Numbered from the stretch's first letter, positions 12,738 to 27,117 are shown. The stretch: DNA of 32,000 bases from Demequinaceae bacterium (GCA_965250005.1 OZ252279.1:1-32000); one strand, 5' to 3'. A program made the numbers and translations. The notes: generated by a model not told the origin, from the letters alone.

Positions 12738-13643
12738 ATGGCCAACAAGCAAACACGGACACTTGCCAGCGGATGGGAGCGAAGCCGCCGCGCGTCCGTG
12801 CGGCGCGCACTCGTCGCGGTCATCGGGATACCGGTCGCGTTCATGGAGTGGGGGCTCATCTTTGCTGCGGCCGGAGGGGATCCCTACGCAACCCGCAATG
12901 ACGACTGGCGCCCGGGGATCATCGGCATCCTGTTCGGCCTCGCGTATCTGGCCGTGGTGGGCTGGTGGCTCGACCACCGCATCGCCTGGCGAGGCGGCGT
13001 GGTGACTGTCGGAGTGCACGTTGCCGCTGCGGGCCTGCTGAGCACACCGTGGCTGTTCATGGCGCCGGACGGAGGCGCGCAGGTCGCGGTGAACATGCTG
13101 GGCATCGCCACAGCGACGATTCTTGCCGCGACGGTCCGGGGATCGTTTCCCGCGCGCGGCGCCGGCAACGCGATGGAGGCGGGCGGTTCTGACGAAGTTG
13201 CCGCAACTTGGCGCCGCCCCCGGCTCACGACATTTAAGCGGTGGCTCGCTGGACTGGTTGGCGCCGGCATCGGCTTTGGATTGACGCTCGTGGTGTGGCA
13301 GTCCGTCAACGATCGATACTCAGAGGCCTTCCTCTTCGATCCGGTGGCGATCTACGCAGTTGGCGCCGGCGTCTATTTGTTGCTCGCTTCGTGGTGGGTC
13401 GACCATCTGGCCGCGCGCCTTGGCCGGTGGCGCGCGTTCCTTGTGCACGTCATCATCGCGGCGGTCCTCGCCGCGCCGTTCGCCGCCCAGGGCCGGTACG
13501 GCGAGGGTGTGATCCTTTACGTGTGCGTGGTCGCCACCGCAGTGGCCGCTGTCTTGGTCGCGGGGCGCGTGCCCGGGTCGTTTGCGTCCTCAGAGGCCCA
13601 GGCTGACGGGACGGCTGCGCGTGCTCCAGACCGCCCCTGGTAG
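12738..13643 (+). CDS. Two-module (8-TM) WWxDH membrane protein (member E)
   Basis: Module 1: SGWERSRRASVRR...VGWWLDHRIAWRGG...TVRGSFPAR. Module 2: ATWRRPRLTTFKRW...ASWWVDHLAARLGRWRAFLVH...GRVPGSFAS. Confidence 0.8.
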   Translation: MANKQTRTLASGWERSRRASVRRALVAVIGIPVAFMEWGLIFAAAGGDPYATRNDDWRPGIIGILFGLAYLAVVGWWLDHRIAWRGGVVTVGVHVAAAGLLSTPWLFMAPDGGAQVAVNMLGIATATILAATVRGSFPARGAGNAMEAGGSDEVAATWRRPRLTTFKRWLAGLVGAGIGFGLTLVVWQSVNDRYSEAFLFDPVAIYAVGAGVYLLLASWWVDHLAARLGRWRAFLVHVIIAAVLAAPFAAQGRYGEGVILYVCVVATAVAAVLVAGRVPGSFASSEAQADGTAARAPDRPW

Positions 13644-14173
13644 CGGGCCGAAAATCTCGCCGCGCGCCGTGCAACTCTCGCCGCAAACATGAGAGTGGGA
13701 TCGCGAAGAGGGGATCAAATGCCACGTCATCCAATGACGTATCGCAAAAATCCAAGGAGTCGGTGCTGGCGGCTGAAGTGTGGAGGCCTTCCGCAACGGT
13801 GACGCTCATGCGAAGTGTGATTGCGCTCTCAACAACAGTCGTCGTGCTCGTGCTCGTGCTCGTGCTCGCGGCTGTGGTCGGTCCTGCCCTGGAATCAGAT
13901 ATCGTCGGTGACGAAACAGGTTCCTTCTGGATGTTTGCAATATTCGCTGCGGGCGGGGCGTCGCTATACGCTGCTGTTGTCTACTGGTGGACGGACTACC
14001 TTTTTGCGCGCCTGGGGCGCGGGTACAGTTTGCTGGCTCACTTGGGAGCAATCGCTCTCATCACTACCGTGTTCGCGTTCGTTCAATTGAATGTCCGCGC
14101 CAACGACTTCAGGCCTTTCGACTTCTGAACCGCCCTGGGTTTTGTTCCGATCTCTATTTGAGAGGATCGGATC

Positions 14174-14491
14174 ATGCCAAAGAGATATCCAGAGGAGTTC
14201 AAGGCCCGCGCGGTCAGGCTCGTTGACGAAGCGGTCGGCGAGGCAGGTGCCAGCGAAACGGATGCCATGTCGAGGGTTGCTACCCGTTTGGGGGTGTCAA
14301 CGGAGTCTGTTAGACGGTGGCGTCGCCAGGCTCGTGTTGATTCGGGCATCGAGCGGGGCGTGACGAGTGAGGAGTCGACGGAGATGCGGCGGCTACGTCG
14401 CGAGAACACTGAGTTGAGGCGTGCAAACGAAATATTGCGGACTGCGTCAGCGTTTTTTGCAGCGGAACTCGACCGCCCCACGACGAAATGA
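14174..14491 (+). CDS. IS3-family transposase OrfA (HTH)
   Basis: MPKRYPEEFKARAVRLV... and leucine-zipper-like RRLRRENTELRRANEILRTASAFFAAELD, typical of IS3 OrfA. Confidence 0.9.
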   Translation: MPKRYPEEFKARAVRLVDEAVGEAGASETDAMSRVATRLGVSTESVRRWRRQARVDSGIERGVTSEESTEMRRLRRENTELRRANEILRTASAFFAAELDRPTTK

Positions 14492-15399
14492 TTCGATACA
14501 TCGATGAGTATCGGGATCAATTCGGGGTTGAGTTCATTTGTCGCACACTTGCTGCGACACCCGGTGGGTTCATTACCTCGCGCGGCTATCGGGCCGCGAA
14601 GTTTCGGCCTCGCTCCGACAGATCAATTCGGGACGAGCAGGTCGGTGAGGCCCTGACCCAAATTCATGCTGCTAACTATTCGGTTTACGGGGTGCGTAAA
14701 ATGTATGCGGCGATGCGTAGGGCCGGCTGGGATGTGGGCCGCGACCAGGTGGCCCGCCTCATGCGCAAGAGCCATTTGCGTGGGGTTCGCCGTGGCAAGA
14801 GAGTCTTCACGACCGTTACGGACCCTGCCTCGATGCGACCAGCTGACTTAGTGGAGCGGCGCTTCACCGCTAGTGGTCCGCGTGAGCTTTGGGTCGCGGA
14901 CATCACCTATGTGGCCACCTGGAATGGCTTCGCCTACACCGCTTTCGTCACCGACGTCTTCAGTCGCAAAATCGTCGGCTGGGCAGTATCCAGTTCGTTA
15001 ACTACCCAGTCGTTGCCGTTACAGGCACTCGAGATGGCTGCCTTCATCAACGACACTGGGGAAGGTCTCATCCATCACAGCGATATGGGCACGCAATATG
15101 TGTCCCTGGCTTACTCCGACCGCCTCACCGACCTCGGCATCACCGCTTCTGTCGGATCCCGTGGAGACAGTTACGACAACGCCCTAGCCGAGTCCGTCAA
15201 CGCCGCCTACAAAGCCGAACTGATTCGTGCTCGAAAGCCCTGGCGAACCATCGAGCAAGTCGAGTTCGCAACCCTGGAATGGGTCCACTGGTTCAACACC
15301 GCCCGACTCCACGAAAACCTCGGCCACCGAACCCCAGCAGAAATCGAAACCGAGCACTACGCTCAAACCCAGAGGGCATCAGCCCTCACAACCACCTAG
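14488..15399 (+). CDS. IS3-family transposase OrfB (DDE integrase core), expressed by -1 frameshift from orfA
   Basis: orfB is in the -1 frame relative to orfA. A T6 run followed by G at 14453-14459 lies in the overlap. DDE residues are present in WVADITY, HHSDMGTQY and YDNALAES. Confidence 0.9.
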   Translation: MIRYIDEYRDQFGVEFICRTLAATPGGFITSRGYRAAKFRPRSDRSIRDEQVGEALTQIHAANYSVYGVRKMYAAMRRAGWDVGRDQVARLMRKSHLRGVRRGKRVFTTVTDPASMRPADLVERRFTASGPRELWVADITYVATWNGFAYTAFVTDVFSRKIVGWAVSSSLTTQSLPLQALEMAAFINDTGEGLIHHSDMGTQYVSLAYSDRLTDLGITASVGSRGDSYDNALAESVNAAYKAELIRARKPWRTIEQVEFATLEWVHWFNTARLHENLGHRTPAEIETEHYAQTQRASALTTT

Positions 15400-15558
15400 G
15401 AACGAAACCCAGGGCGGTTCATTCTGGTATGTGACGGGGCCCGTTTGGGTTCTTGGCGGAGTGTGTTGCGTGCTGATTGCAATTGGCACGACAGCGGCGG
15501 GGCTCATGCGTGGATCGTTTGCGCCCCGCAGCCCGTCGTTGCGTGGGAATTCAGCGAA

Positions 15559-18228
15559 CTAGACCGGCCAGCAGTCGGTCGCGCCGTAGCGGTTGGCGTC
15601 CGCCTGCTGGGCAACCAAGGAGCGCCGCACGCCGTCGCGGGCCTCGATGAGCAAGCGGCGCAGCGCGGGGGACTCCTCCGGGTTGGATGCCAGCCACTGG
15701 TCCGTGTGCTTCATGATCCCGTCCGGCTCGGAAGCCGCTCCGGCGCCCACGCGGCGACCCGTCAGGGCGGCCGGGAACAGTCCCTCGATCAGGTTCTGCG
15801 CCATTTCTAGCGTCTTGGTATCCCACAGGCGGGCGACCGCGTCAAAGTAGGGTTCCACAAAGGGCTCGATCAGCGCGAGATTGTGAACGCGGTGGAAGCC
15901 CATGATGGTTGCGGCCTGCAACGCATTTGGGAGATCCTCTCCCGCGGCGGCGTCGATGAGCGCAGCCCACGCCGCCGTCTTGGCCTCGGGCGTCGGAATG
16001 GCAGCGCGCGCTATGGTCGCGAAGCGCTCGCCGGTGGCGGTGTTGTCTTCGGCCAGGCGTTCGGCAATCTGGGGCTCCCCAGCCCGGCCGCCAGCGACCA
16101 GCGACACCAGCAGCTCCCAGCCAAGGTCCGTGTCGATTTCGAGGCCCTCGAACTTGGCGGTGCCGTCCAGCAGGGAAGCGACCGCGTCCAGGTGCGTGGG
16201 CGTCTCGGCCCGGCCCGCGAACGCCTTGACCAACTGATACTGGCTGTCGCCACCGGCCTCGGCCTCGCCCGCGAGACTCCAGAGCGCGTCGCCCGTTTTT
16301 CCTTGGACGTGCTCCGCCGCAACGGGCTGGACGTACAGGTCCAGCGACGTGCTCATCTGGCGCAACAGCATCAGCACCACGGTGGATTCGGATTCAGCGC
16401 CGATGTTGTTCAGCACCAGGTCGATGAAGTCGCGTCCGGCCATCTCGCCGTCGCGGGTCATGTCCCACGCGGCGGCGAAGACCATCGAGCGGGGCAAGGA
16501 GTCTTCGAACGCATCCACGTGCTCGATGGCGGTCTTGAGCGAGGCGTCGTCTAGGCGGATCTTGCCGTACGCGAGGTCTTCGTCATTCACCAGCAGCAAG
16601 TCCGGCATGGGTTTGCCCGCCACGTCCGCGACGGCGGTGGATGCTCCATCGATGTCTGTCTCCACATGCCAGGACCGCTTCATGACCGCGCTGGCACCTT
16701 CGCCGGTGACGTCGTAGCCGCCGATGCCCATGCGGTGCGGGCGCTGCGTTGGCCAGTCGTCGGGTGCCTCCTGGGTGACGGTGAAGGCCGCGATGGTGCC
16801 GTCGTCGGCGGTCTGAATCGAAGGGCGCAGCGTGGTGACGCCGGCCTTCTCCAGCCAGAGCCCGCTCCATTCGTCGAGGTCGCGGCCGGAGGTCTTCTCG
16901 AGCTCCACGAGCAGGTCGCGCAGGGTGGTGTTGCCGCGGGCGTGCTTGCGGAAGTACTCGGCCACTCCAGCGAAGAATGCGTCCTGGCCGACCCATGCCA
17001 CCAGTTGCTTGAGCACGGACGCGCCCTTGGCGTACGTGATGCCGTCAAAGTTGACCTCGACGTCCTCGAGGTCGTTGATGGTGGCGACGATAGGGTGCGT
17101 GGACGGCAGCTGGTCCTGGCGGTACGCCCACGATTTCTCGAGTGTGTTGAACGTGGTCCACGCACTGGGGCCTTGCATGGTCTGGGCGGCGCAGAGCGTG
17201 GAGACGTACTCCGCAAAGGATTCGTTGAGCCACAGGTCGTTCCACCACTTCATGGTGACCAGGTCACCAAACCACATGTGTGCGAGCTCATGGAGGATGG
17301 TCACGGTGCGGCGCTCAACGCGGGCTTGCGCCACCTTGGAGCGGAACACGTAGTCCTCGAGGAACGTCACGGCGCCGGCGTTCTCCATGGCCCCCGCGTT
17401 GAACTCCGGCACAAAGAGCTGGTCGTACTTGGGGAACGGGTATGCCATATCGAACAGGTTCTCGTAGTACGTGAACCCGGCCTGGGTGATGTCCAGGATG
17501 ACGTCCGCGTCCAAGTGCTCGGCGAGGCCCTTGCGGCAGTAGACGTCCGCGCCGATGCGGCCCTTGCTGCTCAAGACGCTGCCCTCGACCTTGTGGTACG
17601 GACCGGCGATGATGGCGGTCACGTAGCAGGGGAGCACGCCGGTGGGCTCGAACGCCCAGGTGCTGACTCCGCGCGTCTCGCCGGCGAGCGCGATGGTCGC
17701 GCCCTCAACGGGGACGGCCTCCGGGCTGAGGGAGTTGCTCACCACGTGCCAGTGCGCGGGCGCGGTGACGGTGAACTGGAAGGTGGCCTTGAGGTCGGGC
17801 TGCTCGAACACCGCGAACACGCGGCGGGTGTCGGCCACCTCGAACTGGCTGTACAGGTAGATCTCGTCGTCCTCGGGGTCCACGAACCGGTGGAGGCCCT
17901 CGCCGGTGTTCATGTACGCGCAGTCGGCGGTGACCACCAGCACGTTGGAGTGCTCGAGCGCGGGAAGCTCGATGCGGCTGTCCTTGAAGTGGGTTGCCGG
18001 GTCCAGCTCGGTGCCATTGAGGACGATGCTGTGGACGCGCGGGGCGATCAGGTCGATGAACGTGGACTCGCCTTTGGTGCCGCCGAACCGCACCGTGGTG
18101 GTAGAGCGGAACGTGGGCGTCTTGTCCGTCAACCCCGTGGTGAGGTCGAGATGCACCTCGTAGGAGTCGGACTGAACGGTGGCGGCGCGGGCCTCGGCCT
18201 CGGCGCGGGTCAGGTTCTCTGCGGGCAT
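15559..18228 (-). CDS. pepN: Aminopeptidase N (M1 family)
   Basis: GAMEN motif (FNAGAMENAG) and zinc site HELAHMWFGDLVT...WLNESFAEY. N-terminus MPAENLTRAEAEARA. ATG 18228 preferred, upstream GTG 18249 also possible. Confidence 0.93.
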   Translation of the reverse strand: MPAENLTRAEAEARAATVQSDSYEVHLDLTTGLTDKTPTFRSTTTVRFGGTKGESTFIDLIAPRVHSIVLNGTELDPATHFKDSRIELPALEHSNVLVVTADCAYMNTGEGLHRFVDPEDDEIYLYSQFEVADTRRVFAVFEQPDLKATFQFTVTAPAHWHVVSNSLSPEAVPVEGATIALAGETRGVSTWAFEPTGVLPCYVTAIIAGPYHKVEGSVLSSKGRIGADVYCRKGLAEHLDADVILDITQAGFTYYENLFDMAYPFPKYDQLFVPEFNAGAMENAGAVTFLEDYVFRSKVAQARVERRTVTILHELAHMWFGDLVTMKWWNDLWLNESFAEYVSTLCAAQTMQGPSAWTTFNTLEKSWAYRQDQLPSTHPIVATINDLEDVEVNFDGITYAKGASVLKQLVAWVGQDAFFAGVAEYFRKHARGNTTLRDLLVELEKTSGRDLDEWSGLWLEKAGVTTLRPSIQTADDGTIAAFTVTQEAPDDWPTQRPHRMGIGGYDVTGEGASAVMKRSWHVETDIDGASTAVADVAGKPMPDLLLVNDEDLAYGKIRLDDASLKTAIEHVDAFEDSLPRSMVFAAAWDMTRDGEMAGRDFIDLVLNNIGAESESTVVLMLLRQMSTSLDLYVQPVAAEHVQGKTGDALWSLAGEAEAGGDSQYQLVKAFAGRAETPTHLDAVASLLDGTAKFEGLEIDTDLGWELLVSLVAGGRAGEPQIAERLAEDNTATGERFATIARAAIPTPEAKTAAWAALIDAAAGEDLPNALQAATIMGFHRVHNLALIEPFVEPYFDAVARLWDTKTLEMAQNLIEGLFPAALTGRRVGAGAASEPDGIMKHTDQWLASNPEESPALRRLLIEARDGVRRSLVAQQADANRYGATDCWPV

Positions 18229-18425
18229 GGTTCGAGTCTGCCACGGCACTATGGTTCGTATGGGACGTGTCGGCAGAGAGTGGCTAGTGCAGGTTGGTCG
18301 CCATTTCGGATACGTGCGCTAACGCGGGTTCGATACGGTCACTGTGGACGACAGCGAGATAATGAGCCTCGGCGGTCCGTGGTTGATCACCGGTCGCGGT
18401 CCGCGATCATCCGAGTCAGGAACGG

Positions 18426-19376
18426 CTACGAGTTCAACCAAGCCCATGTTGATCTGATTCGCCTCGTTGGAGGGAAGGAACCTCCATTGCAGATAGGGAG
18501 AACCACAAACCGATCAATTCTGTCGAACTTCTCAGCGTCGTCATCGCCCGGCGTCGGCGTTTCCTTTGGAAGCCACGGCAATGGCCGGGCTGAATCGCCT
18601 CGGGTTTGGTGGAGGGCGGGTTCTCCCAGGAGCGGTTGCTCGTGGGGTGTGTTCTCACGGTAGTACAGGTCTTTCTTCTCGATTGGTGTGAGGTATCCAA
18701 TCGAGGAGTGGAGGCGGTTGTCGTTGAACCGGTGGACCCACGACAGCGTCGCGAGTTCGAGTTCGTCGGTCGTGCGGAATGGGCCATCGATTTTCACGCA
18801 CTCGTTCTTGTAGAGTCCGACGACGGACTCAGCGAGGGCGTCGAGTGGCAGCTCGGTGGGCATTCGGTTCGTGGTGCGCCAGCCGACGATTCGCCGGGAG
18901 AACACGTCGGTCACGAACGCAGTGGACGCCATCCCAGACCAGGTCGGCACGTAGGTGAAGTCCACGACCCACAGCTCATTGGGACATTCGGCACGGAAGT
19001 TGCGCTTCACGTGATCCGGTGCTCGGTTTGCTGCCGGATCGGGACGGGTCGTGACGAACTGTTTGCCGCGACGCACCCCGCGAAGCCCCTGAGCCCGCAT
19101 GAGACGCTCCACCGTGCAGCGGGCGGTCACGACACCGTCACGCTTGAGTAGGCGCCACACCTTTCGCGCACCCGAGATCCCGCGACCCTTCGTGCGGTCC
19201 CAGAAGACCCGCTCAATGTGTTCGCGCAACTCTTGATCACGCACCGTCCGCTGCGAGATGGCACGCGTTTTGAACGCGTAGTAAGTAGACGGGGCGATCT
19301 TGACTCCGTGCTCGGTGAGCACCCGGCAGATCGGCTCGACCCCGAAACGAACACGATGCTCGTCGATGAAGTTCAC
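18426..19376 (-). pseudogene. IS3-family transposase OrfB, internally deleted, reading out through the IS end
   Basis: Aligned with the other IS3 OrfB, about 50 aa are missing between LPLDAL and AESVVGLYK, including the HHSD.G.QY block with the second catalytic Asp. There is no stop codon inside the element. The ORF runs through the terminal IR (18591-18616) to 18426. Confidence 0.8.
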
Positions 19377-19754
19377 TAAAACGGAAGTCGCGGGTCGAGC
19401 TCCCGCGCGAAGAAACTTGACGCCGCAAACAAAATATCGTTGGCACGCTTCAACTCACGATTCTCACGCTCGAGATCTTTGATACGGGCCGCGTCGACCG
19501 TGGCGATGCCCCTGACCTCGCCGGCGTCAATGCGCGCCTGTTTCACCCACCCACGCAACCTGTCCGGAATCACCCCCGTGCGATGACCGATACGGATCAC
19601 CGCCGCAATCAACGACAACGACACCTCCTGGCTCATCGCCTCACTTACGAACCGAATGGCCCGATCCCGCAACTCCTGCGGATACTTCCTCGATGCTGGC
19701 ATGACTCCCATCCTTTCGGGAAATCAGACCCTCCACTAAACCCGAGGCGATTCA
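18591..19754 (-). mobile_element. Defective IS3-family element (1164 bp) without target-site duplication
   Basis: Inverted repeats TGAATCGCCTCGGGTTTGGTGGAGGG (18591-18616) and its complement at 19729-19754 (25/26 match). Flanks are GGC versus GTG, so there is no TSD. orfB carries an internal deletion. Confidence 0.85.
19376..19711 (-). CDS. IS3-family transposase OrfA
   Basis: SRKYPQELRDRAIRFV...IKDLERENRELKRANDILFAASSFFARELD. Confidence 0.85.
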   Translation of the reverse strand: MGVMPASRKYPQELRDRAIRFVSEAMSQEVSLSLIAAVIRIGHRTGVIPDRLRGWVKQARIDAGEVRGIATVDAARIKDLERENRELKRANDILFAASSFFARELDPRLPF

Positions 19755-20713
19755 GTGCCAGCTTCCTTGTACCCGGCAGGTACTGGACTGAGGCCGAGCT
19801 GGACATGTGCTTCGTTGCTGAGCAGCACCCCGGCAGGAACGTGATACTGCCGATATTTCACCAAGTCGAGCCCGCCGCAGTGCGGGAAGCGAACCTCAAT
19901 CTCGGGGGGCGTCTGGGTGCCCTAACCCAGCGCGGTGGTCGCCTCGACGTCGACGGGGTGGCCTCCGACATCCTGAAGGCCATCGATCCGCGCGCCGCTC
20001 AGCAGCGCCAAGAGTCGTTGCTCGAGTTGGGTCGAGCCTGGCGGGACCAGATCTCCATCGTCGCGAGCGAACTCGCAAGCGGTCGCGACGTGCCCACGCG
20101 TGTTCATGCGGCGAAGCGTTTGGCCGAGACGGCCGATCGCACTTTCGGGTCGCGCAGGCAGGAGTGCGTCGACGAGTTGTGTTCATTCGTTCGGAGGGCG
20201 TCCCTCGCGCCCGACGAGAGGGAGGTGCAGCACGGCGCCCTCCGCGAGATCAAGGCCCGCCTTGCGAGAGACCGCGACCCCGAGACCGCGTGGCACTCGC
20301 TGCACTTAGATTTCACGCGCGCCCAGTTCGACGAGCTTGACTTCATGAACATCGCTATCCGCGGCGGACTGATGGACTTCTACCAGGCGAGCTTTGATAG
20401 GAACTACTTCAGTTTCTTCAGGCTTGACGTGGACTGTCCGCTTGCCGCGCAGGGCGTGTACTTCGGTGGCGTCGAACTGAGGCGGGGTGTCTTGTACTTT
20501 GACGGTGCACAGGCGCGGCAAGGCACCGTTGACTTCAGCGGCATGTCGTTTCAAGGCGGCGGACTGCAGTTTCGCGGGAGCACATTCTCGCCCGGCGTCA
20601 GCACGCGGGACGGCACGCCGTTCCCGAGCCTCCCCGCCGACGTAGGCGACCAAGTGGTGCGGATTGGCGGCGACGGGCTCGTGCGCACCTATCACGACGG
20701 GTTTGATACCTAA
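19755..20713 (+). pseudogene. 5'-truncated TIR-domain / pentapeptide-repeat protein gene
   Basis: Directly at the IS end the frame reads SASFLVPGRYWTEAELDMCFVAEQHPGRNVILPIFHQVEPAAVRE...LGALT......VDGVASDILKAI. This is the C-terminal half of a bacterial TIR domain, including the W..E.L helix. Next comes a helical linker (VHAAKRLAE...CVDELCSFVRR), then pentapeptide-like repeats (LHLDFTRAQFDELDFMNIAIRGGLMDFYQASFDR...VYFGGVELRRGVLYFDGAQARQGTVDFSGMSFQGGGLQFRGSTF). The N-terminal TIR half and the start codon are absent. Confidence 0.7.
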
Positions 20714-20723
20714 CTGTCTCCAC

Positions 20724-21935
20724 CTAGACCGTTGTGTCGTCCACCGGCGCGACCAGTGCTTCTACAATTTCGGTAGCGGCGTACTTCCGGCCGTAATTCC
20801 CCCCAGTCGTTTCGGCGAGATACCCGCGCGCAACGAACCGATCGATCGCTTTGCCAGCGGCGACCTTCGAGCACTCAAGTTCGCGCGCGACCGATGCGAC
20901 GGTGACGAACGGCGAGCGAACCAGGAGGTTTGGTAGCCGCAATTTGAGTGTCCCGCTTCGGCCTCCCTGCGCAGAAGCCACCATGGCTTCAGCAATCGTT
21001 TGGACGCGCGCAATGCGGTGCTCAACGTCGCGCGCGGACAGTCGCACGGCCTGCGCGAAGAACTCCACCCAGCCTGACCAGTCCCCGGTCGCGGACACTT
21101 CGTACAGGCGATCACGGTATTCCGAGTCGTGACGTTCGAGCCAGGGTGAGATTGTCAGAAGCGGTTCGCTCAGAATTCCGCGCTCGAGGAGGCTGCGGAC
21201 GACGAGCATGCGGCCGATGCGTCCGTTCCCGTCAGTGAACGGGTGGAGGGACTCAAATTGATAGTGCGCGAGTGCGGCATCAGCGATCGGGTCTCGCTCA
21301 GCGCGACCGGAAGCGTTTCCCCACTCCACCAGCGCGCCGAGTGCAGCTTCGAGACCGATTCCCGGGGGCATGGGCACAAAACGTGCATCCTCGACGGAGC
21401 TTGTTGGGCTGCCAATCGCGACTTGGGTGGTGCGAACTTTTCCTGGGTCGCGTTGGCCGGAAGGGGTGTCGCGGACCAGCATGCCTTGGAGTTCGCAGAT
21501 ATGGCCGAGTGTCAGTCGGCGTTTCTTCTTGGCGAGATCGAAGGCGTAGGTCGCTGCCTTCACGTAGTTGAAGATTTCGCGCATCGCGGTTGATGGCGCA
21601 TTTTTGTCATCGTAGTCGAGCGCGAGGACCTCTCGCATGGGCTCGAACGTACCTTCGAGCGCCGACGTCGACTGAGCCTCGCGTCGAAGCAGCGGCGCTG
21701 ACATCCAGCCACCAAGATCCTTGGCGCCGGCAATCTTAACGATTTGATCTAGGCGCGCCACGCCCTCGCGGGCGTCAGCAAGGGCCTTCCACGCCGACTG
21801 CGAGAGGTTCGGCATTGCGTCCAAGTTATGCGGTACGAAGCCTGCGTGTTGGTATGCGTTCCCACTTCGTGCGTCTGTACCCGCAATCGTCGTCAGATTT
21901 CCGGTCGGGCTCGTCTTCATCGTTTCTAGGTCCAC
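20724..21935 (-). CDS. Fic family protein (AMPylase-type, class II with N-terminal inhibitory motif, C-terminal wHTH)
   Basis: Canonical Fic motif HPFTDGNGRIGR. Upstream [ST]xxxE[GN] motif TSALEG. Length about 400 aa. Start is GTG 21935 or ATG 21920. Confidence 0.9.
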   Translation of the reverse strand: MDLETMKTSPTGNLTTIAGTDARSGNAYQHAGFVPHNLDAMPNLSQSAWKALADAREGVARLDQIVKIAGAKDLGGWMSAPLLRREAQSTSALEGTFEPMREVLALDYDDKNAPSTAMREIFNYVKAATYAFDLAKKKRRLTLGHICELQGMLVRDTPSGQRDPGKVRTTQVAIGSPTSSVEDARFVPMPPGIGLEAALGALVEWGNASGRAERDPIADAALAHYQFESLHPFTDGNGRIGRMLVVRSLLERGILSEPLLTISPWLERHDSEYRDRLYEVSATGDWSGWVEFFAQAVRLSARDVEHRIARVQTIAEAMVASAQGGRSGTLKLRLPNLLVRSPFVTVASVARELECSKVAAGKAIDRFVARGYLAETTGGNYGRKYAATEIVEALVAPVDDTTV

Positions 21936-21977
21936 ATTGAAACTCTAGCGCCCTAAAAGTTAATTTGGATCGGGAGA

Positions 21978-22274
21978 TTGAAACTTTCACGTCAACAAGT
22001 GCTTCCGGCGAAAGCAATCGACTCGGCCAGTCTCAACTATGACCTCGTCGTTCAGTATCTCGTCTTTGGTGTCTCCCATATTTTCGTAGTGAACTTCATC
22101 GCTGTGATCTTCGTCCGTTGGCCTGCCAACGGCGTGATCTTCGTGCTTCTTGTTCTTGTTCTTGCGTCAGTACGTCTACCGATCTCGACGAGTCGTCGCG
22201 GTCTTGGCTTCGCTTGCGCTAGCATCGTGAAGCTCAACCCAGAGCCCACTGATGCAGAGGATTGTGAGCCTTAG
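21978..22274 (+). CDS. Possible small two-TM membrane protein in an AT-richer spacer
   Basis: 98-codon ORF with a TTG start. Hydrophobic stretches YLVFGVSHIFVVNFIAVIFV and GVIFVLLVLVLASV. The codon-aligned antisense frame is also largely open. No homology recognised. Confidence 0.25.
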   Translation: MKLSRQQVLPAKAIDSASLNYDLVVQYLVFGVSHIFVVNFIAVIFVRWPANGVIFVLLVLVLASVRLPISTSRRGLGFACASIVKLNPEPTDAEDCEP

Positions 22275-22306
22275 ACGCCAACGCTCTGTGGCGGTAGCGT
22301 CGTGAT

Positions 22307-22507
22307 ATGCGTCCACCCATTTGCGAGGTCTGCGACGCCGAGGTGGATCCGGCCGACGGCCTGGTGCGCTGCGCGCCCACGCCGGCGAGCATCGAGTGGC
22401 ACGCGCCCGCTGCGCGCGAGCTCGCCGTCGGGCACGCGCTCGGAGAGGTGATCCGCACCATCCGCGAGACCGACGCCCCGCGACGGCGCCCGCTGCCGGG
22501 CCCGTGA
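22307..22507 (+). CDS. Small Cys-containing hypothetical protein
   Basis: ATG start and high GC3. CxxC...C arrangement (PICEVCDAEVDPADGLVRC). Its stop overlaps the next start (GTGA at 22504-22507). Confidence 0.45.
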   Translation: MRPPICEVCDAEVDPADGLVRCAPTPASIEWHAPAARELAVGHALGEVIRTIRETDAPRRRPLPGP

Positions 22508-22931
22508 CTGACGCATCGGCCGCGGGGCACCTGGCCTTTGACGACATGAACCACCTGCACCGCACCCTGCGCGAGCTGCTGCCCACGCTTGCGGCGCTGG
22601 CCGGGCTGGACCCCGCGAGCATCGACCGCACGCTCACGCGCGACTGGTCGCCCGTGGACGGCGCAGTGCCGCCCAACTGCCCGTACTCGGAGACGACGCT
22701 GCGCACGGCATCGGCGGGCGAGACCACCCTGTCGCTTCAGTTTGAGGCGGCGCACTGGAGCGAGGACGACTGCGCGCGCACGTCCCTGACGCTCAGCCTC
22801 GCGGGCGCGGGGGAGCGCGACTACCGGGTGAGCGCGTGGAGCCCGGCGGCGGGGCGCCCTACGTGGTGGAGGCGATCGATGTTTCGGGGGTGGTGCCGGG
22901 GGAGTTGGCGGATGTGCTTGGCTTCCAATAG
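22504..22931 (+). pseudogene. Hypothetical protein, translationally coupled to 22307-22507, with an apparent frame switch near 22845-22860
   Basis: GTG 22504 opens VTDASAAGHLAFDDMNHLHRTLRELLP...TLTRDWSPVDG...ERDYRVSAWSPAAG. After the G-rich run ggcggcggggcgccc, the protein-like high-GC3 frame is ...APYVVEAIDVSGVVPGELADVLGFQ* ending at 22929-22931. The length is not a multiple of 3. Confidence 0.35.
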
Positions 22932-22976
22932 CGCCCCACCCGACTGGTGGGCGCTTGGATGTGGCACGATCGGCCT

Positions 22977-23243
22977 ATGCGAGAAATCAGACGCGTTGTC
23001 CGCGTTACATACGATGAAGACGCTGACGCCGCGTATATCTACCTAACGGATTCGGAATTGCCCGCTGTTAGGGACACAGTCGCTTTCGACCCGCCGGGCG
23101 TCATCGGCTTCACCGCGGCGGCTGACTGGAAAGACGAGCGCCTCGCGGGTATTGAAATTCAGGGCGCGTCGAAGCGTCTGTTCGCAGATCTGCTAGTTGG
23201 AACGGACGCGGACGAGGCGAACGGCAGAGTGCCGCGCGGCTAG
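22977..23243 (+). CDS. DUF2283-like small protein
   Basis: MREIRRVVRVTYDEDADAAYIYLTD... matches the characteristic YD.e.DalYi.l N-terminus of DUF2283 proteins. Confidence 0.6.
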   Translation: MREIRRVVRVTYDEDADAAYIYLTDSELPAVRDTVAFDPPGVIGFTAAADWKDERLAGIEIQGASKRLFADLLVGTDADEANGRVPRG

Positions 23244-23390
23244 ACGTCCCACCTGACACCGGCTGGTTCAGTTAGACACACGTGCTCGCGGCGCAAGAAA
23301 TCTCGGCCGAGCACCACCTGGGCGATGTGGTCTGCACGCTCACGCGCGACTGGGCGCCGGCGGGCTCCGCGATGCGCGGGAGCGCGACTA

Positions 23391-23417
23391 CCGGGTGAGT
23401 TGAGGGATCTCACCCGG
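23391..23417. other. Perfect 9-bp hairpin (CCGGGTGAG-9 nt-CTCACCCGG) at the end of a partial duplicate of 22628-22832
   Basis: Read directly from the sequence. Left arm 23391-23399, right arm 23409-23417. Confidence 0.7.
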
Positions 23418-23471
23418 TGAGTAAGTGGTCTCACTGGGCGGAGGCGACGTTCTTCTCGTAGTGTCGAGAAC

Positions 23472-23789
23472 ATGGGAGATTCCTGGGACGAGGTGCTGCG
23501 GCTTCGGCGGGCGTACCTGCTGGCACCGTTCCCGGATCGCCTGCAATACGAGGTCGCTGGCGTGAATCTCGTGGTTGTCGAGGAGGAGCTCTGGGGGTAT
23601 GTGAGCCAGGCCACCAGGACCCGTTCCGGCACAGTCACGCTCACGCGGAACGCGCTTGATTCGCTTCTCGCCGATCTCATCCGAATCGAACCAATGCTCG
23701 CCGACGACGTGCTCGATTTCTTCTCGCTGGCACGCGAACTTGCGCAAGCCACGGTTGACGCGTTGGCGGCGCCCGGGGGCGGGAAGTAG
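23472..23789 (+). CDS. Hypothetical protein (105 aa)
   Basis: ATG start with protein-like composition (MGDSWDEVLRLRRAYLLAPFPDRLQYEVAGVNL...). No family recognised. Confidence 0.45.
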   Translation: MGDSWDEVLRLRRAYLLAPFPDRLQYEVAGVNLVVVEEELWGYVSQATRTRSGTVTLTRNALDSLLADLIRIEPMLADDVLDFFSLARELAQATVDALAAPGGGK

Positions 23790-23796
23790 TCGCGGC

Positions 23797-23911
23797 GAAC
23801 GCGGATCGCGGTGCCAGCCTGGACGGGCACTGCCTGGTGGTCGAGCACCATCACGCCCTCGCTGTCCAGGAGCAGGTAGAGCTCATCGAGGACCGCGTGT
23901 GAGTGTCAGTA
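23797..23911 (-). pseudogene. Cupin-domain gene fragment (paralogue of the C-terminal cupin of 26212-27117)
   Basis: Minus-strand translation Y*HSHAVLDELYLLLDSEGVMVLDHQAVPVQAGTAIRV aligns with HYWHSHAVLDELYLFLDGEGVLALDDELIPVRAGTAIRV of the bicupin. The Trp codon is replaced by TGA. No upstream or downstream continuation. Confidence 0.75.
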
Positions 23912-23956: not shown

Positions 23957-24754
23957 ATGATGGGAGCCATGCGCATCGTGTCGATCGGGGACAGCTTCAC
24001 GGAGGGTGTGGGGGACAAGCGGCCGGACGGCACCCCGGTGGGCTGGGCCGACCGCGTGGCCATGGGCCTCGCAGCCGCCCACCCGGACCAGGAAGTCTGG
24101 TACGCCAACCTTGCCGTTCGTGGGCGTTTGATCGACCCCATCGTGAATGGCCAGCTCGATGCCGCGCTCGCGCTCGAACCGCCACCCACGCACCTGACTT
24201 TCAACGGCGGCGGCAACGACATGCTGCGACCCGGCTACTCTGACGCGCACATGATCGCACTGCTGACCCGCGTGCTCGACGCCTGCGCTGCTGCGGGTGT
24301 CAGCGTGGTCCTGTTGAGTGGCCCCGACCCATCCGAGGGCATCCCTCCGGGCAAGCGCATGCGCGAACTCAGCACTCGACTCACGGCGATTGTCGAAGAG
24401 ATCGTCGCCAAGCGCGATGGGGTCATCTACGTGGACAACTTCGGAGACCTGGAGTCGCGCAAAGTGCCGTACTGGTCCGCCGACCGGCTGCACCTGAACG
24501 CGCTGGGGCACCAACGCGTCGCCAGCCGCGTGCTCACTGCCATGGGGGTTCCAACCGCCGCGCCGGCGCTGGACCCGAAGTTAGCCGCCCGCCGCGGGGT
24601 GCTGGGCGCGATCTGGTTCTGGGCGGTATACGTGCTGCCGTGGTTTGGGCGCAGACTGTTGAGAAAGTCCTCGGGCGACGGGCGCCAGGCCAAGTTCCCC
24701 ACCTGGGTGCGAGTACCTGCGAACGGTGAGCCGCTCCGCGGTGCTGGCCCGTAG
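23957..24754 (+). CDS. SGNH/GDSL-family hydrolase with C-terminal hydrophobic segment
   Basis: Block I IVSIGDSFTEG, block III NGGGNDML, block V DRLHLN. Start is ATG 23957 or 23969; GTG 23903 would overlap the cupin remnant. Confidence 0.85.
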   Translation: MMGAMRIVSIGDSFTEGVGDKRPDGTPVGWADRVAMGLAAAHPDQEVWYANLAVRGRLIDPIVNGQLDAALALEPPPTHLTFNGGGNDMLRPGYSDAHMIALLTRVLDACAAAGVSVVLLSGPDPSEGIPPGKRMRELSTRLTAIVEEIVAKRDGVIYVDNFGDLESRKVPYWSADRLHLNALGHQRVASRVLTAMGVPTAAPALDPKLAARRGVLGAIWFWAVYVLPWFGRRLLRKSSGDGRQAKFPTWVRVPANGEPLRGAGP

Positions 24755-25655: not shown

Positions 25656-25973
25656 ATGAATCGATCAGTATTCGCACTCGCGTTCGCGTTACCGATGTTA
25701 CTGGGCGCATGTTCCAGTCCAGATGATTTGGAAGCGCCCGGCACCATGGACGCGGAGATGAGTGCACGGCTCGACTCCCTAGATGCGGCAGTCGCGGACT
25801 GGCGCGATGCAGCATCGCTCCCCGAGGCGCACACCGCCCCGGAGGAGGCATGCAACCTCGTCGTCGGCCCCGGTGGTCCGCTCTATGGAGACGCCGATGG
25901 CGACGGGGTGGCCCAAGGCCAAAACGGCATCGGCCTATTGCCCGGGAAGGGCGGCGAGGCTGGCCTGGCTTAA
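25656..25973 (+). CDS. Putative lipoprotein (possibly the 5' part of a gene interrupted by an in-frame TAA)
   Basis: Signal peptide with lipobox MNRSVFALAFALPMLLGAC. Stops at TAA 25971-25973. The same frame continues as ORF 25977-26255. Confidence 0.6.
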   Translation: MNRSVFALAFALPMLLGACSSPDDLEAPGTMDAEMSARLDSLDAAVADWRDAASLPEAHTAPEEACNLVVGPGGPLYGDADGDGVAQGQNGIGLLPGKGGEAGLA

Positions 25974-25976
25974 GCG

Positions 25977-26255
25977 GTGACCGTCAATACGTGTGTGGAG
26001 GCTGACGTGCTCGGCGGCTCGTGGGACGACGCTGCGGGCCGGTGGGGCATCGCGCAGACCGCGTATGGCGAGTGGACGCGGTCCCACAACACGATGCCTT
26101 CGCTACTGAGCCATCCCCAGCGCGTGGTGGGGTGGGCGACGTTCACGCTCGCGACCGACAGCCTGGACGAGGCGCGCGAGTACGCGGGGCACGCGGAGAT
26201 TCATGCGCGACTCACCAGGGCAGCGGGATCTCCGGATACATGGTTGCGTCTTTGA
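25977..26255 (+). CDS. Hypothetical protein, or the 3' part of the preceding lipoprotein gene
   Basis: GTG lies one codon after the TAA, in the same frame. High GC3. The 3' end overlaps the bicupin gene convergently by 44 nt. Confidence 0.4.
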   Translation: MTVNTCVEADVLGGSWDDAAGRWGIAQTAYGEWTRSHNTMPSLLSHPQRVVGWATFTLATDSLDEAREYAGHAEIHARLTRAAGSPDTWLRL

Positions 26256-27117
26256 TCTCTGCGAGCGGCTGGCCGCCGGCGCGGATGCACACCCACTTGA
26301 GTGCGGTCGGGCTTTCGGGGGTGCAGGCCCAGCTGCGGCGCACACCTTGGGGCACGCGGATCGCCGTGCCGGCGCGCACCGGGATCAGCTCGTCGTCCAG
26401 TGCCAGCACGCCCTCGCCGTCGAGGAACAAGTACAGCTCGTCCAGGACCGCGTGCGAGTGCCAGTAGTGGGCGCCCTCGCCGGGTTTGCGTGAGTTCACG
26501 GTCATCCCGATGAACTCTAGATCAATCTCGCGGTCCAGCACCTGGCGGCCCGGCGCGCTCGTCTTTTCCGACAGTCCGCCGTACGGCTCGAACCATTCCG
26601 CCATGGCCCCGGCCTCAACGACCTCGTAGCCGGCCGACGCGTCGGCGCTGGCGCTGGTCGCCTTGAGGGGCGGTTCACCGTCGGACCATGGCAGCGGGCG
26701 GTCGCGCTCCGGCCACGCGTCGCGCGCGATGTCCGCAAGTGCGGCGCCGCCGGCGCGAATGCAGATCCAGGTGAGCGGCGCGGGGCTGTCGTGCGTGCAA
26801 AACCAACTGCGCTGCGTTCCTTGCGCGACCTTGACGGCAGTGCCGGCACGCACGGGGACGATGTCGTCACCGAGCGCCATCACCCCCTCGCCGGACACAA
26901 AGAAGTACAACTCCTCAAGTTCGGTGTGGGCGTGCCAGAAGTTTGCGCCCGTGCCGGGGGCGCGCGAGTTGAAACTGAGCCCAAAGAACTCCGCATCGAT
27001 CTCGCGGTCCACGAACCGGCGTCCCGCGACGGGGTTGGTGGTGGCGGCTTGCGCGGCTTCAGTCTCGTCGATCCACTCGTGTGGGGCGCCAACGTCGATC
27101 CGGGTGTAGGAGGACAT
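26212..27117 (-). CDS. Bicupin (two tandem cupin domains) protein
   Basis: Internal duplication: ...NFWHAHTELEELYFFVSGEGVMALGDDIVPVRAGTAVKV...WICIRAGG and ...HYWHSHAVLDELYLFLDGEGVLALDDELIPVRAGTAIRV...WVCIRAGG. Confidence 0.85.
   Translation of the reverse strand: MSSYTRIDVGAPHEWIDETEAAQAATTNPVAGRRFVDREIDAEFFGLSFNSRAPGTGANFWHAHTELEELYFFVSGEGVMALGDDIVPVRAGTAVKVAQGTQRSWFCTHDSPAPLTWICIRAGGAALADIARDAWPERDRPLPWSDGEPPLKATSASADASAGYEVVEAGAMAEWFEPYGGLSEKTSAPGRQVLDREIDLEFIGMTVNSRKPGEGAHYWHSHAVLDELYLFLDGEGVLALDDELIPVRAGTAIRVPQGVRRSWACTPESPTALKWVCIRAGGQPLAEIKDATMYPEIPLPW

Follow-up and report, generated by a model that had tools for sequence, protein, structure and literature searches.

What does a cluster of unlike genes between two conserved neighbours represent: one multi-gene defence system, or a site at which such genes accumulate? 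The question is raised by a region of a Demequinaceae bacterium genome (GCA_965250005.1, OZ252279.1:1-32000; the window, meaning here the whole 32,000-nucleotide stretch that was analysed). Between pepN, encoding aminopeptidase N, and a gene for an SGNH/GDSL hydrolase lie a defective insertion sequence (IS) of the IS3 family, the 3′ remnant of a gene for a protein with a TIR domain, a helical linker and pentapeptide-like repeats (TIR-PRP), a gene for a Fic AMPylase, and several small open reading frames (ORFs; Table 1). An earlier note, made from the sequence alone, had described the region as accessory and defence-like. Our analysis makes it likely that the region represents cargo in a variable defence-island slot, and that it consists of genes that are independent modules, lying together because the slot collects such genes, and not because they form one system. 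For the genes of the island we infer enzymatic and anti-phage roles.

A chromosomal slot with different cargo in each genome

The host of the window is a high-GC actinobacterium, for which codon-position GC and the GC content of third codon positions (GC3) were computed per gene. The slot was compared descriptively across the four genomes available, the window and the contigs L001, L002 and L092. The pepN end of the slot is matched by orthologues on L001 (77% nucleotide identity) and L092 (78.6%), and the GDSL gene has an orthologue on L002 (78% nucleotide and 72% amino acid identity). On L001, pepN is followed by DUF2254, a PCTIR-type TIR gene (PDC-S35), a SIR2_2-like 679-aa gene, TIR-PRP, a co-directional Fic gene (product Fic-B) and ERG4/24. 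The order on L002 is an RmrA-like M78 peptidase, an HSDR_N_2 protein, a 509-aa membrane protein, TIR-PRP, a convergent Fic gene (product Fic-C), ERG4/24 and, after further genes, the GDSL orthologue. L092 carries pepN, HsdM/S, a KAP NTPase and HsdR, forming a type I restriction-modification (RM) locus, then an orthologue of the window's Fic gene and ERG4/24.

One chromosomal slot with shared flanks thus holds different cargo in each of the four genomes, as is characteristic of a defence hotspot, and since that cargo consists mostly of known or candidate defence genes, the slot is accessory and defence-like. The type I RM locus with its KAP NTPase, the PCTIR-type TIR gene with its SIR2-like neighbour, and the RmrA-like peptidase in the slots of relatives bear out the earlier description of the region. 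Composition separates cargo from host, with GC3 values of 0.82–0.89 in host genes (0.89 in pepN, whose 889-aa product has an identical database record) against 0.67–0.79 in the IS, TIR-PRP, Fic and DUF2283 genes. ERG4/24 is 84–87% conserved among the relatives; it and the other genes that lie between Fic and GDSL on L002 are absent from the window.

Further traces of rearrangement were noted around the slot. An 80-aa internal ERG4/24 fragment beside Fic-C (L002 8891-9133) is 88.5% identical to the full copy on the same contig (9893-10969) and may be a scar of cassette exchange via flanking homology. Window positions 25785-26152, 3′ of GDSL, hold a 105-aa lipoprotein-like ORF and a 92-aa ORF; the DNA of this stretch is 65–69% identical to L001 4780-5155 and L002 5706-5879. 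Both counterparts lie upstream of the TIR-PRP region, which indicates relocation between lineages. Ten sequences were submitted to database lookup, and the seven window proteins with an exact record are all singleton clusters at 90% identity; the species is poorly sampled.

Fic and TIR-PRP are separate modules

Ten nucleotides from the stop codon of the TIR-PRP remnant, and convergent with it, ends an intact gene for a class II Fic protein (Fic-A; classes as defined in PMC12249575). Motif reading and profile matches agree with the class proposed in the earlier note: the product matches Pfam Fic_N (2.2e-13, match 49-133) and Fic (6.8e-17), carries HPFTDGNGRIGR, fitting the Fic motif HxFx(D/E)GNGRxxR, and has TSALEG at about residues 90-95, inside the Fic_N match, fitting the inhibitory (S/T)xxxE(G/N) helix. 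The PADLOC SoFic model matches Fic-A with E 2.2e-78 over model positions 8-358 of 361, and a comparison with PDB sequences gave SoFic (3eqx/3zcn, E ~5e-22). SoFic itself counts as a class 2 anti-phage system made of a single protein (PMC12249575); a 2026 preprint reports EF-Tu as one of its targets and describes de-AMPylation as well (10.64898/2026.07.09.737422). Fic-A is the only gene in the window that plausibly still works in defence or as a toxin. By analogy, this predicted autoinhibited AMPylase would AMPylate a host target on infection and so cause growth arrest.

The group to which Fic-A belongs is very large in Actinobacteria (1526 matches at E <1e-30). Fic-A is 57% identical to a Fic protein from a Demequina metagenome-assembled genome and 83% identical, at the amino acid level, to its orthologue on L092 (1622-2818); a 63%-identical homologue adjoins a type ISP RM enzyme. 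Synonymous divergence (dS) of the Fic-A gene between the window and L092 is 1.87, with a nonsynonymous-to-synonymous ratio (dN/dS) of 0.06. This dS is about three times that of the flanks (~0.6, from pepN in the window and L001 and GDSL in the window and L002), so that the alleles look either older than the host split or horizontally exchanged.

The earlier note had raised, as inference, a functional pairing of the TIR and Fic genes. The comparison does not uphold it. The Fic proteins beside the three orthologous TIR-PRP genes share 28% pairwise identity or only the motif, and the layout of the two genes varies: convergent at 10 nt in the window, convergent at 177 nt on L002, and co-directional at 126 nt on L001. 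On L092 the Fic-A orthologue occupies the same slot beside a type I RM locus, with no TIR-PRP. Nor does the proposed co-occurrence extend to the distant TIR-PRP proteins P0005, P0006 and P0007, whose contexts hold no Fic neighbour. Fic and TIR-PRP are independent modules, and their adjacency is not a conserved operon partnership.

An IS-associated event has truncated TIR-PRP

The window copy of TIR-PRP begins in the middle of its TIR domain. Its product is 76% identical to the intact orthologue P0002 (415 aa) and 75% to P0003 (389 aa), and homology starts at window positions 19752-19755, at P0002 residue 97, exactly where the IS ends, as the earlier note had seen. In P0002 the break falls between the strand VAMIVSP and the helix WTETEL. 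Searches, with tblastn at E up to 50, recovered the missing 5′ part of the TIR neither to the left of the IS nor elsewhere in the 32 kb. Pfam gave no TIR match to the window product, and PADLOC PDC-S66 matches only the TIR tail of the remnant. In an AF2 model the TIR piece (residues 1-64) is disordered, with pLDDT <50, and the helical and beta parts reach about 90. The complete fold, from betaA to alphaE, is not encoded by the window gene; judged by this model, no TIR fold can form from the remnant, and the window copy is a pseudogene. The truncation and inactivation put forward in the earlier note thereby hold.

The adjacent element is a recognizable but damaged IS3 relative, as had been noted. 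It is bounded by 38-nt inverted repeats (18590-18627 and 19718-19755, 84% complementary) with TG...CA ends (TGAATCGCC...GGCGATTCA). In adjacent frames, orfA matches HTH_Tnp_1 (2.3e-8) and orfB matches HTH_21, a partial rve, and rve_3. The transposase scores above the NCBIfam transpos_IS3 cut-off (E 2.3e-58) in two stretches, the best of which stops at profile position 264 of 369. Within orfB, rve is matched at positions 2-56 of 102 only, with the C-terminal integrase-core models rve_2/rve_3 taking over at once at residues 180-233. Alignment by tblastn to full-length IS3 transposases pairs 262–268 query residues with 316–347 subject codons, so that 50–80 residues are missing, and orfB leaves the element without a stop codon. 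The element is 132 bp shorter than an intact relative on the far side of pepN, and the internal deletion in its DDE core renders it defective.

No target-site duplication (TSD) of the 3–5 bp expected for the IS3 family was found at the defective IS, which is flanked by ggc and gtg. With the 5′ half of the gene gone as well, this indicates two steps, an insertion and a later loss of sequence on the side of pepN, and not insertion alone. The TIR-PRP gene, an AbTir-like TIR with a four-helix repeat and a beta-repeat domain, would have been an old resident of the slot that was hit by an IS3-family element; a later pepN-side deletion would have taken its first ~70–95 codons (TIR betaA to betaC), its promoter and anything upstream. 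The age of the gene follows from its dS between the window and the orthologues (0.71–0.78), which is similar to that of the flanks (pepN 0.63, GDSL 0.57) and speaks for long residence rather than recent import, even as the other slot contents vary.

The 340 bp or so between pepN and the IS had been described as having no confident gene, and proved to be non-coding: codon-position GC is flat (0.60/0.58/0.57), no homologue was found, and there is no similarity to L001, L002 or L092. It contains an isolated IS-end-like remnant, which lies 136 bp away from the defective IS and is oriented like the 18590 end of that element. Of the first 13 nt of the remnant, 12 agree with the IS terminal repeat, and a GGAGGG block comes next (CTGATTCGCCTCG..GGAGGG); this suggests an earlier IS event at the junction.

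Intact relatives carry an AbTir-like TIR domain

The intact orthologues, 389–415 aa in length, show what the window gene has lost. P0002 and P0003 both match Pfam TIR and TIR_2 (TIR_2 4.6e-17), and an AF2 model of P0002 (pTM 0.76) begins with a TIR fold (36-150), continues with four long helices (162-266) and has a C-terminal domain rich in strands (280-410). Foldseek places the P0002 TIR with AbTir, PdTIR and BtpA (E ~1e-6, target-normalised TM-score ~0.78), and phmmer against PDB gives AbTIR with E 6.8e-21, aligning WTETEL with WTNYEL of AbTir. The glutamate of WTNYEL, which we take to be the catalytic residue, is aligned with the second Glu of WTExE, a motif invariant in all six family sequences, the window remnant included. 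P0002 also matches ThsB models (PADLOC 4e-12; NCBIfam Thoeris type III ThcB4 1e-9). The doubt whether residues encoded at 19755-19990 belong to a TIR fold is thus settled in favour of the earlier assignment by the AbTir match of the orthologues, with the qualification that the remnant itself is no working TIR.

The architecture is rare. PADLOC covers only the TIR part of the orthologues (PDC-S66 and ThsB-like models), and none of the tested libraries holds a full-length model for it, in line with the earlier remark that a TIR-pentapeptide fusion is not a described system. When 1.84 billion cluster representatives were scanned exhaustively with HMMER, four full-length clusters at 50% identity emerged, those of P0003, P0005, P0006 and P0007 (83–42% identity), along with thousands of further matches to the TIR domain alone. 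Patterns were matched in metagenome and viral contigs, with no confirmed relative among them, and a scan of genome contigs returned only TIR-less relatives of the C-terminal module.

Those relatives are abundant. The C-terminal helical and beta-repeat module is found at 431 actinobacterial loci in species-representative genomes, at ~30% identity over residues ~173-378. In 73 of 79 reconstructed full ORFs, transmembrane (TM)-like segments precede the module instead of a TIR, and this replacement looks like an effector swap on a single polypeptide. The TM-anchored homologue P0004 passes the Pentapeptide_3 cut-off (31.8 bits against 27); the window product (19.6 bits) and P0002, P0005, P0006 and P0007 (15–25 bits) stay below it. 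In AF2 models the beta-repeat domain has many short strands at pLDDT ~90, and its five-residue periodicity is weak. Homology to P0004 makes ‘pentapeptide-like’ a reasonable label at the sequence level, the fold itself being unconfirmed. On Streptomyces sp. NBC_00191 (NZ_CP108130.1), a TM/helical/pentapeptide-repeat relative occurs in two mirror-image copies (L080, 25520-46323; L081, 8444289-8465092), ~35 kb from each end of one linear chromosome and apparently in its terminal inverted repeats; several other module relatives, for example L013 and L019, are near chromosome ends or on plasmids.

Four of five independent TIR-PRP loci lie in a defence or mobile context. The P0005 island (L083-L088, JGI metagenome contigs) adjoins a tyrosine integrase. 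The same contigs show an operon of SLOG (LD_cluster2) with a 405-aa weak-TIR gene, a ThsB_TIR and Nmad2 pair, HMUDK_hel, thymidylate synthase and kinase, and a GIY-YIG protein, which puts three TIR genes beside a thymidine-hypermodification cluster. P0006 has SLOG, MazG_C, HMUDK_hel and an IS110 transposase as neighbours.

From these features, intact TIR-PRP is probably a single-chain sensor-effector, in which the helical and beta-repeat module would sense a trigger or drive assembly and the AbTir-like TIR would cleave or cyclise NAD+. It is possible, if less likely than not, that the TIR/helical/pentapeptide-like proteins (P0002, P0003, P0005, P0006 and P0007 being intact) form an undescribed single-gene anti-phage family, and that the 431 loci of the sensor module belong to a large unrecognised defence family with TM-for-TIR exchange. 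If so, the beta-repeat domain might mimic nucleic acid or provide a scaffold for assembly that senses phage proteins.

Alternative explanations

The main rival to a single-chain protein is a Thoeris-like role, in which intact TIR-PRP proteins would be ThsB sensors making a cyclic ADP-ribose (cADPR)-type signal for a separate SIR2 or SLOG effector, lost from the window by deletion. The ThsB matches of P0002 are in keeping with it, as is AbTir, the closest solved TIR, which produces a cADPR isomer; on L001, 59 nt separate the end of the SIR2_2-like gene from the TIR-PRP gene that follows it on the same strand, and SLOG (LD_cluster2) genes adjoin TIR-PRP in L083-88 and L089, together with other TIR genes. 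No ThsA model is matched, however: the SIR2-like protein of L001 gives a weak Aga_SIR2 match (E 1e-3) and nothing in PDB, L002 and L091 have no SIR2 or SLOG neighbours, and the TM segments in place of TIR in 73 of 79 module relatives resemble a change of effector within one polypeptide. We therefore think a Thoeris-like arrangement unlikely, if worth keeping in mind. Still less probable is a two-gene system of TIR-PRP and the adjacent Fic, for example with Fic regulating or backing up the TIR protein, of which the window would hold a half-dead copy. The two genes are immediate neighbours in the window, L001 and L002, and all three Fic proteins match the PADLOC SoFic model, but these Fic proteins are non-orthologous, in contrast to the ~75% identity of the TIR-PRP genes; the two genes are oriented and spaced differently from genome to genome, L092 has the Fic-A orthologue in the same slot with no TIR-PRP, P0005, P0006 and P0007 have no Fic nearby, and the dS values of Fic-A and TIR-PRP are discordant.

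The remnant could conceivably still work as a TIR-less helical/pentapeptide-like protein, expressed from within the IS (ATG at 19583) or from the annotated internal Met. The NCBI annotation has a 302-aa product, the frame is open from 19583 to 20713 through the IS end, the model predicts the fold of the helical and beta domains with confidence, TIR-less relatives of the module are common, and dN/dS against the orthologues (0.20, with 0.24 between the two intact orthologues) is not relaxed. A recent truncation would give the same dN/dS, though, and a sigma-70 scan of 19300-22400 found no promoter-like site; nearly all TIR-less relatives carry TM segments that the remnant lacks, and its first ~64 residues are predicted to be disordered, so that we consider a functional remnant improbable. 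About as doubtful is that the region is a recombination-prone junkyard whose TIR and Fic proteins serve regulation or housekeeping, for instance as a pentapeptide DNA mimic or a reversible Fic regulator. Vertical inheritance of TIR-PRP with flank-like dS under purifying selection, one family member in a housekeeping context, the commonness of Fic_N-Fic proteins in Actinobacteria and the de-AMPylation by SoFic reported in 10.64898/2026.07.09.737422 would fit; the type I RM and KAP NTPase, PCTIR-type TIR, SIR2-like and RmrA-like genes in the slots of relatives, and the integrase, SLOG and TIR genes and DNA-hypermodification genes beside other TIR-PRP members do not. Several observations also count against our own reading of the region as independent defence cargo with a dead TIR gene. 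Fic stands at the ERG4/24 edge of the slot in 4/4 genomes and beside TIR-PRP in 3/3, more often than we would expect of unlinked genes by chance. Fic-A scores 106.7 bits against a cut-off of 550 in the NCBIfam SoFic equivalog NF046030, and this large shortfall makes it a distant family member and not a SoFic orthologue. P0007 (L091) has the housekeeping neighbours chorismate synthase and nusA; Foldseek of the remnant model against PDB returned no pentapeptide protein, the best hits being helical repeats (E 0.085); and the dN/dS of the remnant, not being raised, means either a recent truncation or continuing constraint. A variable slot that gathers independent modules nonetheless remains the likely account of the region.

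Other features of the region

Upstream of Fic, the AT-richer stretch that had been estimated by manual count has a G+C content of 51.5% over 21800-22199, against 0.62–0.74 in its flanks. It holds a candidate ORF for a strongly hydrophobic 98-aa protein (21978-22274, + strand; GC2 0.37, GC3 0.56) with no homologue or family match, and, at 22097-22147, 18-nt direct repeats (D4) that lie 30 nt apart around a terminator-like hairpin (CCGTTGGC..GCCAACGG). The stretch may encode a small membrane protein or serve as a regulatory site.

Table 1 Coordinates of the slot, its flanks and the neighbouring intact IS in the window
Feature	Position	Strand	Remarks
Intact IS3-family element	14126..15421		orfA 14174-14491, orfB 14488-15399; far side of pepN
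pepN (aminopeptidase N)	15559..18228	-	Conserved left flank of the slot; 5′ end 18228/18249
Non-coding scar, pepN to IS	18250..18590	.	Holds IS-end-like remnant 18454-18490
Defective IS3-family element	18591..19754	-	orfA 19711-19376; orfB from 19376
TIR/helical/pentapeptide-like (TIR-PRP) 3′ remnant, 319 codons	19754..20713	+	TIR alphaC-to-alphaE (~19754-19990), helical and beta-repeat domains
Class II Fic AMPylase gene (Fic-A), intact	20724..21920/35	-	Fic_N, Fic, C-terminal domain; 398-aa product annotated at NCBI
AT-richer divergent intergenic region upstream of Fic	21936..22306	.	Candidate 98-aa ORF, direct repeats, hairpin
Broken gene, three frames	22307..22931	+	22307-22504, 22504-~22855, ~22857-22931
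DUF2283 gene, 98 aa	22947..23243	+	Pfam PF10049 E 1.5e-8, above cut-off
Partial second copy of broken gene	23334..23402	+	TLTRDW... and ERDYRVS (stop) segments
105-aa orphan ORF	23472..23789	+	Coding-like GC 0.73/0.43/0.76
Cupin pseudogene fragment	23744..23905	-	In-frame stop immediately upstream
SGNH/GDSL hydrolase	23958..24754	+	Pfam Lipase_GDSL_2 7.8e-24; conserved right flank

Beyond this stretch, the earlier note had proposed a small CxxC protein translationally coupled by GTGA to a second ORF. Both ORFs and the overlap exist: a 66-aa CxxC ORF (22307-22507, frame 2), a GTGA-overlapping ORF in frame 1, and a frame-0 tail ending at 22931. Coupling is rejected, as the alignment of a single 237-aa homologue, P0275, runs through both ORFs and on into the tail (E 3e-51, 41% identity), interrupted after CxxC by a gap of 22 residues. 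Both frame switches appear in the GC-frame plot and in the translations. By this homology the CxxC ORF and its partner are parts of one gene of ~215 aa, which has been disrupted by two frame changes and has lost 22 aa to a deletion. A partial second copy, internally deleted, repeats parts of 22628-22832 (D1, 42 nt, 81%; D2, 26 nt, 96%). The palindrome ctcacccggtgag follows the stop codon of this second copy, which is separated from the first by the DUF2283 gene.

The remaining small genes were largely as first described. The DUF2283-like gene is confirmed by PF10049 (Table 1) and has a GC3 of 0.67, under the host value. The 105-aa ORF has a coding-like GC pattern and is an orphan: Pfam, NCBIfam, PHROGs and PADLOC gave no match, nor did the composite search yield a homologue; across the island's small ORFs, PHROGs, NCBIfam and PADLOC likewise gave no matches. 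The cupin pseudogene fragment is 55% identical over 58 positions (E 3e-18) to residues 220-277 of a bicupin encoded in the window (26212-27117), which lie in its C-terminal, second cupin domain; its own Cupin_2 match has E 0.034. The small-ORF side, with its broken gene and partial copy, cupin fragment, DUF2283 gene and orphan ORF, is probably the debris of repeated rearrangement.

The intact IS3 element beyond pepN has 23-nt inverted repeats (96%), an uninterrupted transposase (NCBIfam IS3 9.3e-82) and a clean 3-bp TSD (TTC/TTC). The stop codon of a 121-aa membrane ORF (13763-14128) overlaps the first bases of its terminal repeat, and the tail of this ORF resembles a neighbouring 301-aa membrane protein (12738-13643); the ORF may have been truncated by the element. 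We rejected pepN as the cargo of an IS3 composite transposon, because pepN adjoins the same slot on L001 and L092.

Significance

The window shows clearly how a defence hotspot erodes through IS activity and deletions. As its copy of TIR-PRP is, by the model, dead, the direct value of that copy is modest, and the lead lies with the intact orthologues, which are rare, evolve under purifying selection and keep an AbTir-like TIR with the aligned glutamate. By sequence, the TIR/helical/pentapeptide-like family appears to be a new variant of TIR-based immune proteins, worth testing through these orthologues. TM-anchored relatives of the module are abundant in Streptomyces and its allies; should the TIR version protect against phage, they too gain a testable hypothesis. 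Two over-readings are corrected as well: the adjacency of Fic and TIR as a partnership, and the ‘coupled small ORFs’, which are really a pseudogene.

Comparison with known systems

Among known systems, SoFic is the nearest to Fic-A. The two share the Fic_N, Fic and C-terminal architecture, HPFTDGNGRIGR and the N-terminal TSALEG, and the full-length PADLOC match; a trait in common is that the closest homologues of Fic-A adjoin RM systems. They differ in that the equivalog cut-off is far from reached (106.7 against 550 bits). In the window, moreover, no room is left after Fic-A for a small antitoxin of the AS1 kind (PMC12249575), since the convergent gene ends 10 nt away. The defective IS resembles the IS3 family in its orfA/orfB organisation, in HTH_Tnp_1, HTH_21 and rve, and in its TG...CA inverted repeats, and departs from it in the internally deleted DDE core, an orfB without a stop inside the element, and the lack of a TSD.

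No ThsA effector of the Thoeris type (SIR2 or Macro/TM plus SLOG) is encoded in the window, the SIR2-like neighbour on L001 matches no ThsA model, and SLOG neighbours are confined to L083-89. The TIR domains of the orthologues resemble the TIR NADases AbTir, PdTIR and BtpA and the ThsB-like sensors in fold, in the aligned WTNYEL glutamate and in their ThsB and PDC-S66 matches. AbTir-type TIRs and ThsB do not have the helical-repeat and beta-repeat C-terminal module that is fused to the TIR in TIR-PRP, and the TIR of the window copy, cut in half, is predicted to be unable to fold. The module in turn links TIR-PRP to the actinobacterial 2TM/helical/pentapeptide-repeat proteins (P0004, L003-L082), which share its RQxCxDxLC helical linker and F-rich beta-repeat domain; where those proteins begin with N-terminal TM-like segments (73/79), TIR-PRP has a cytosolic TIR instead.

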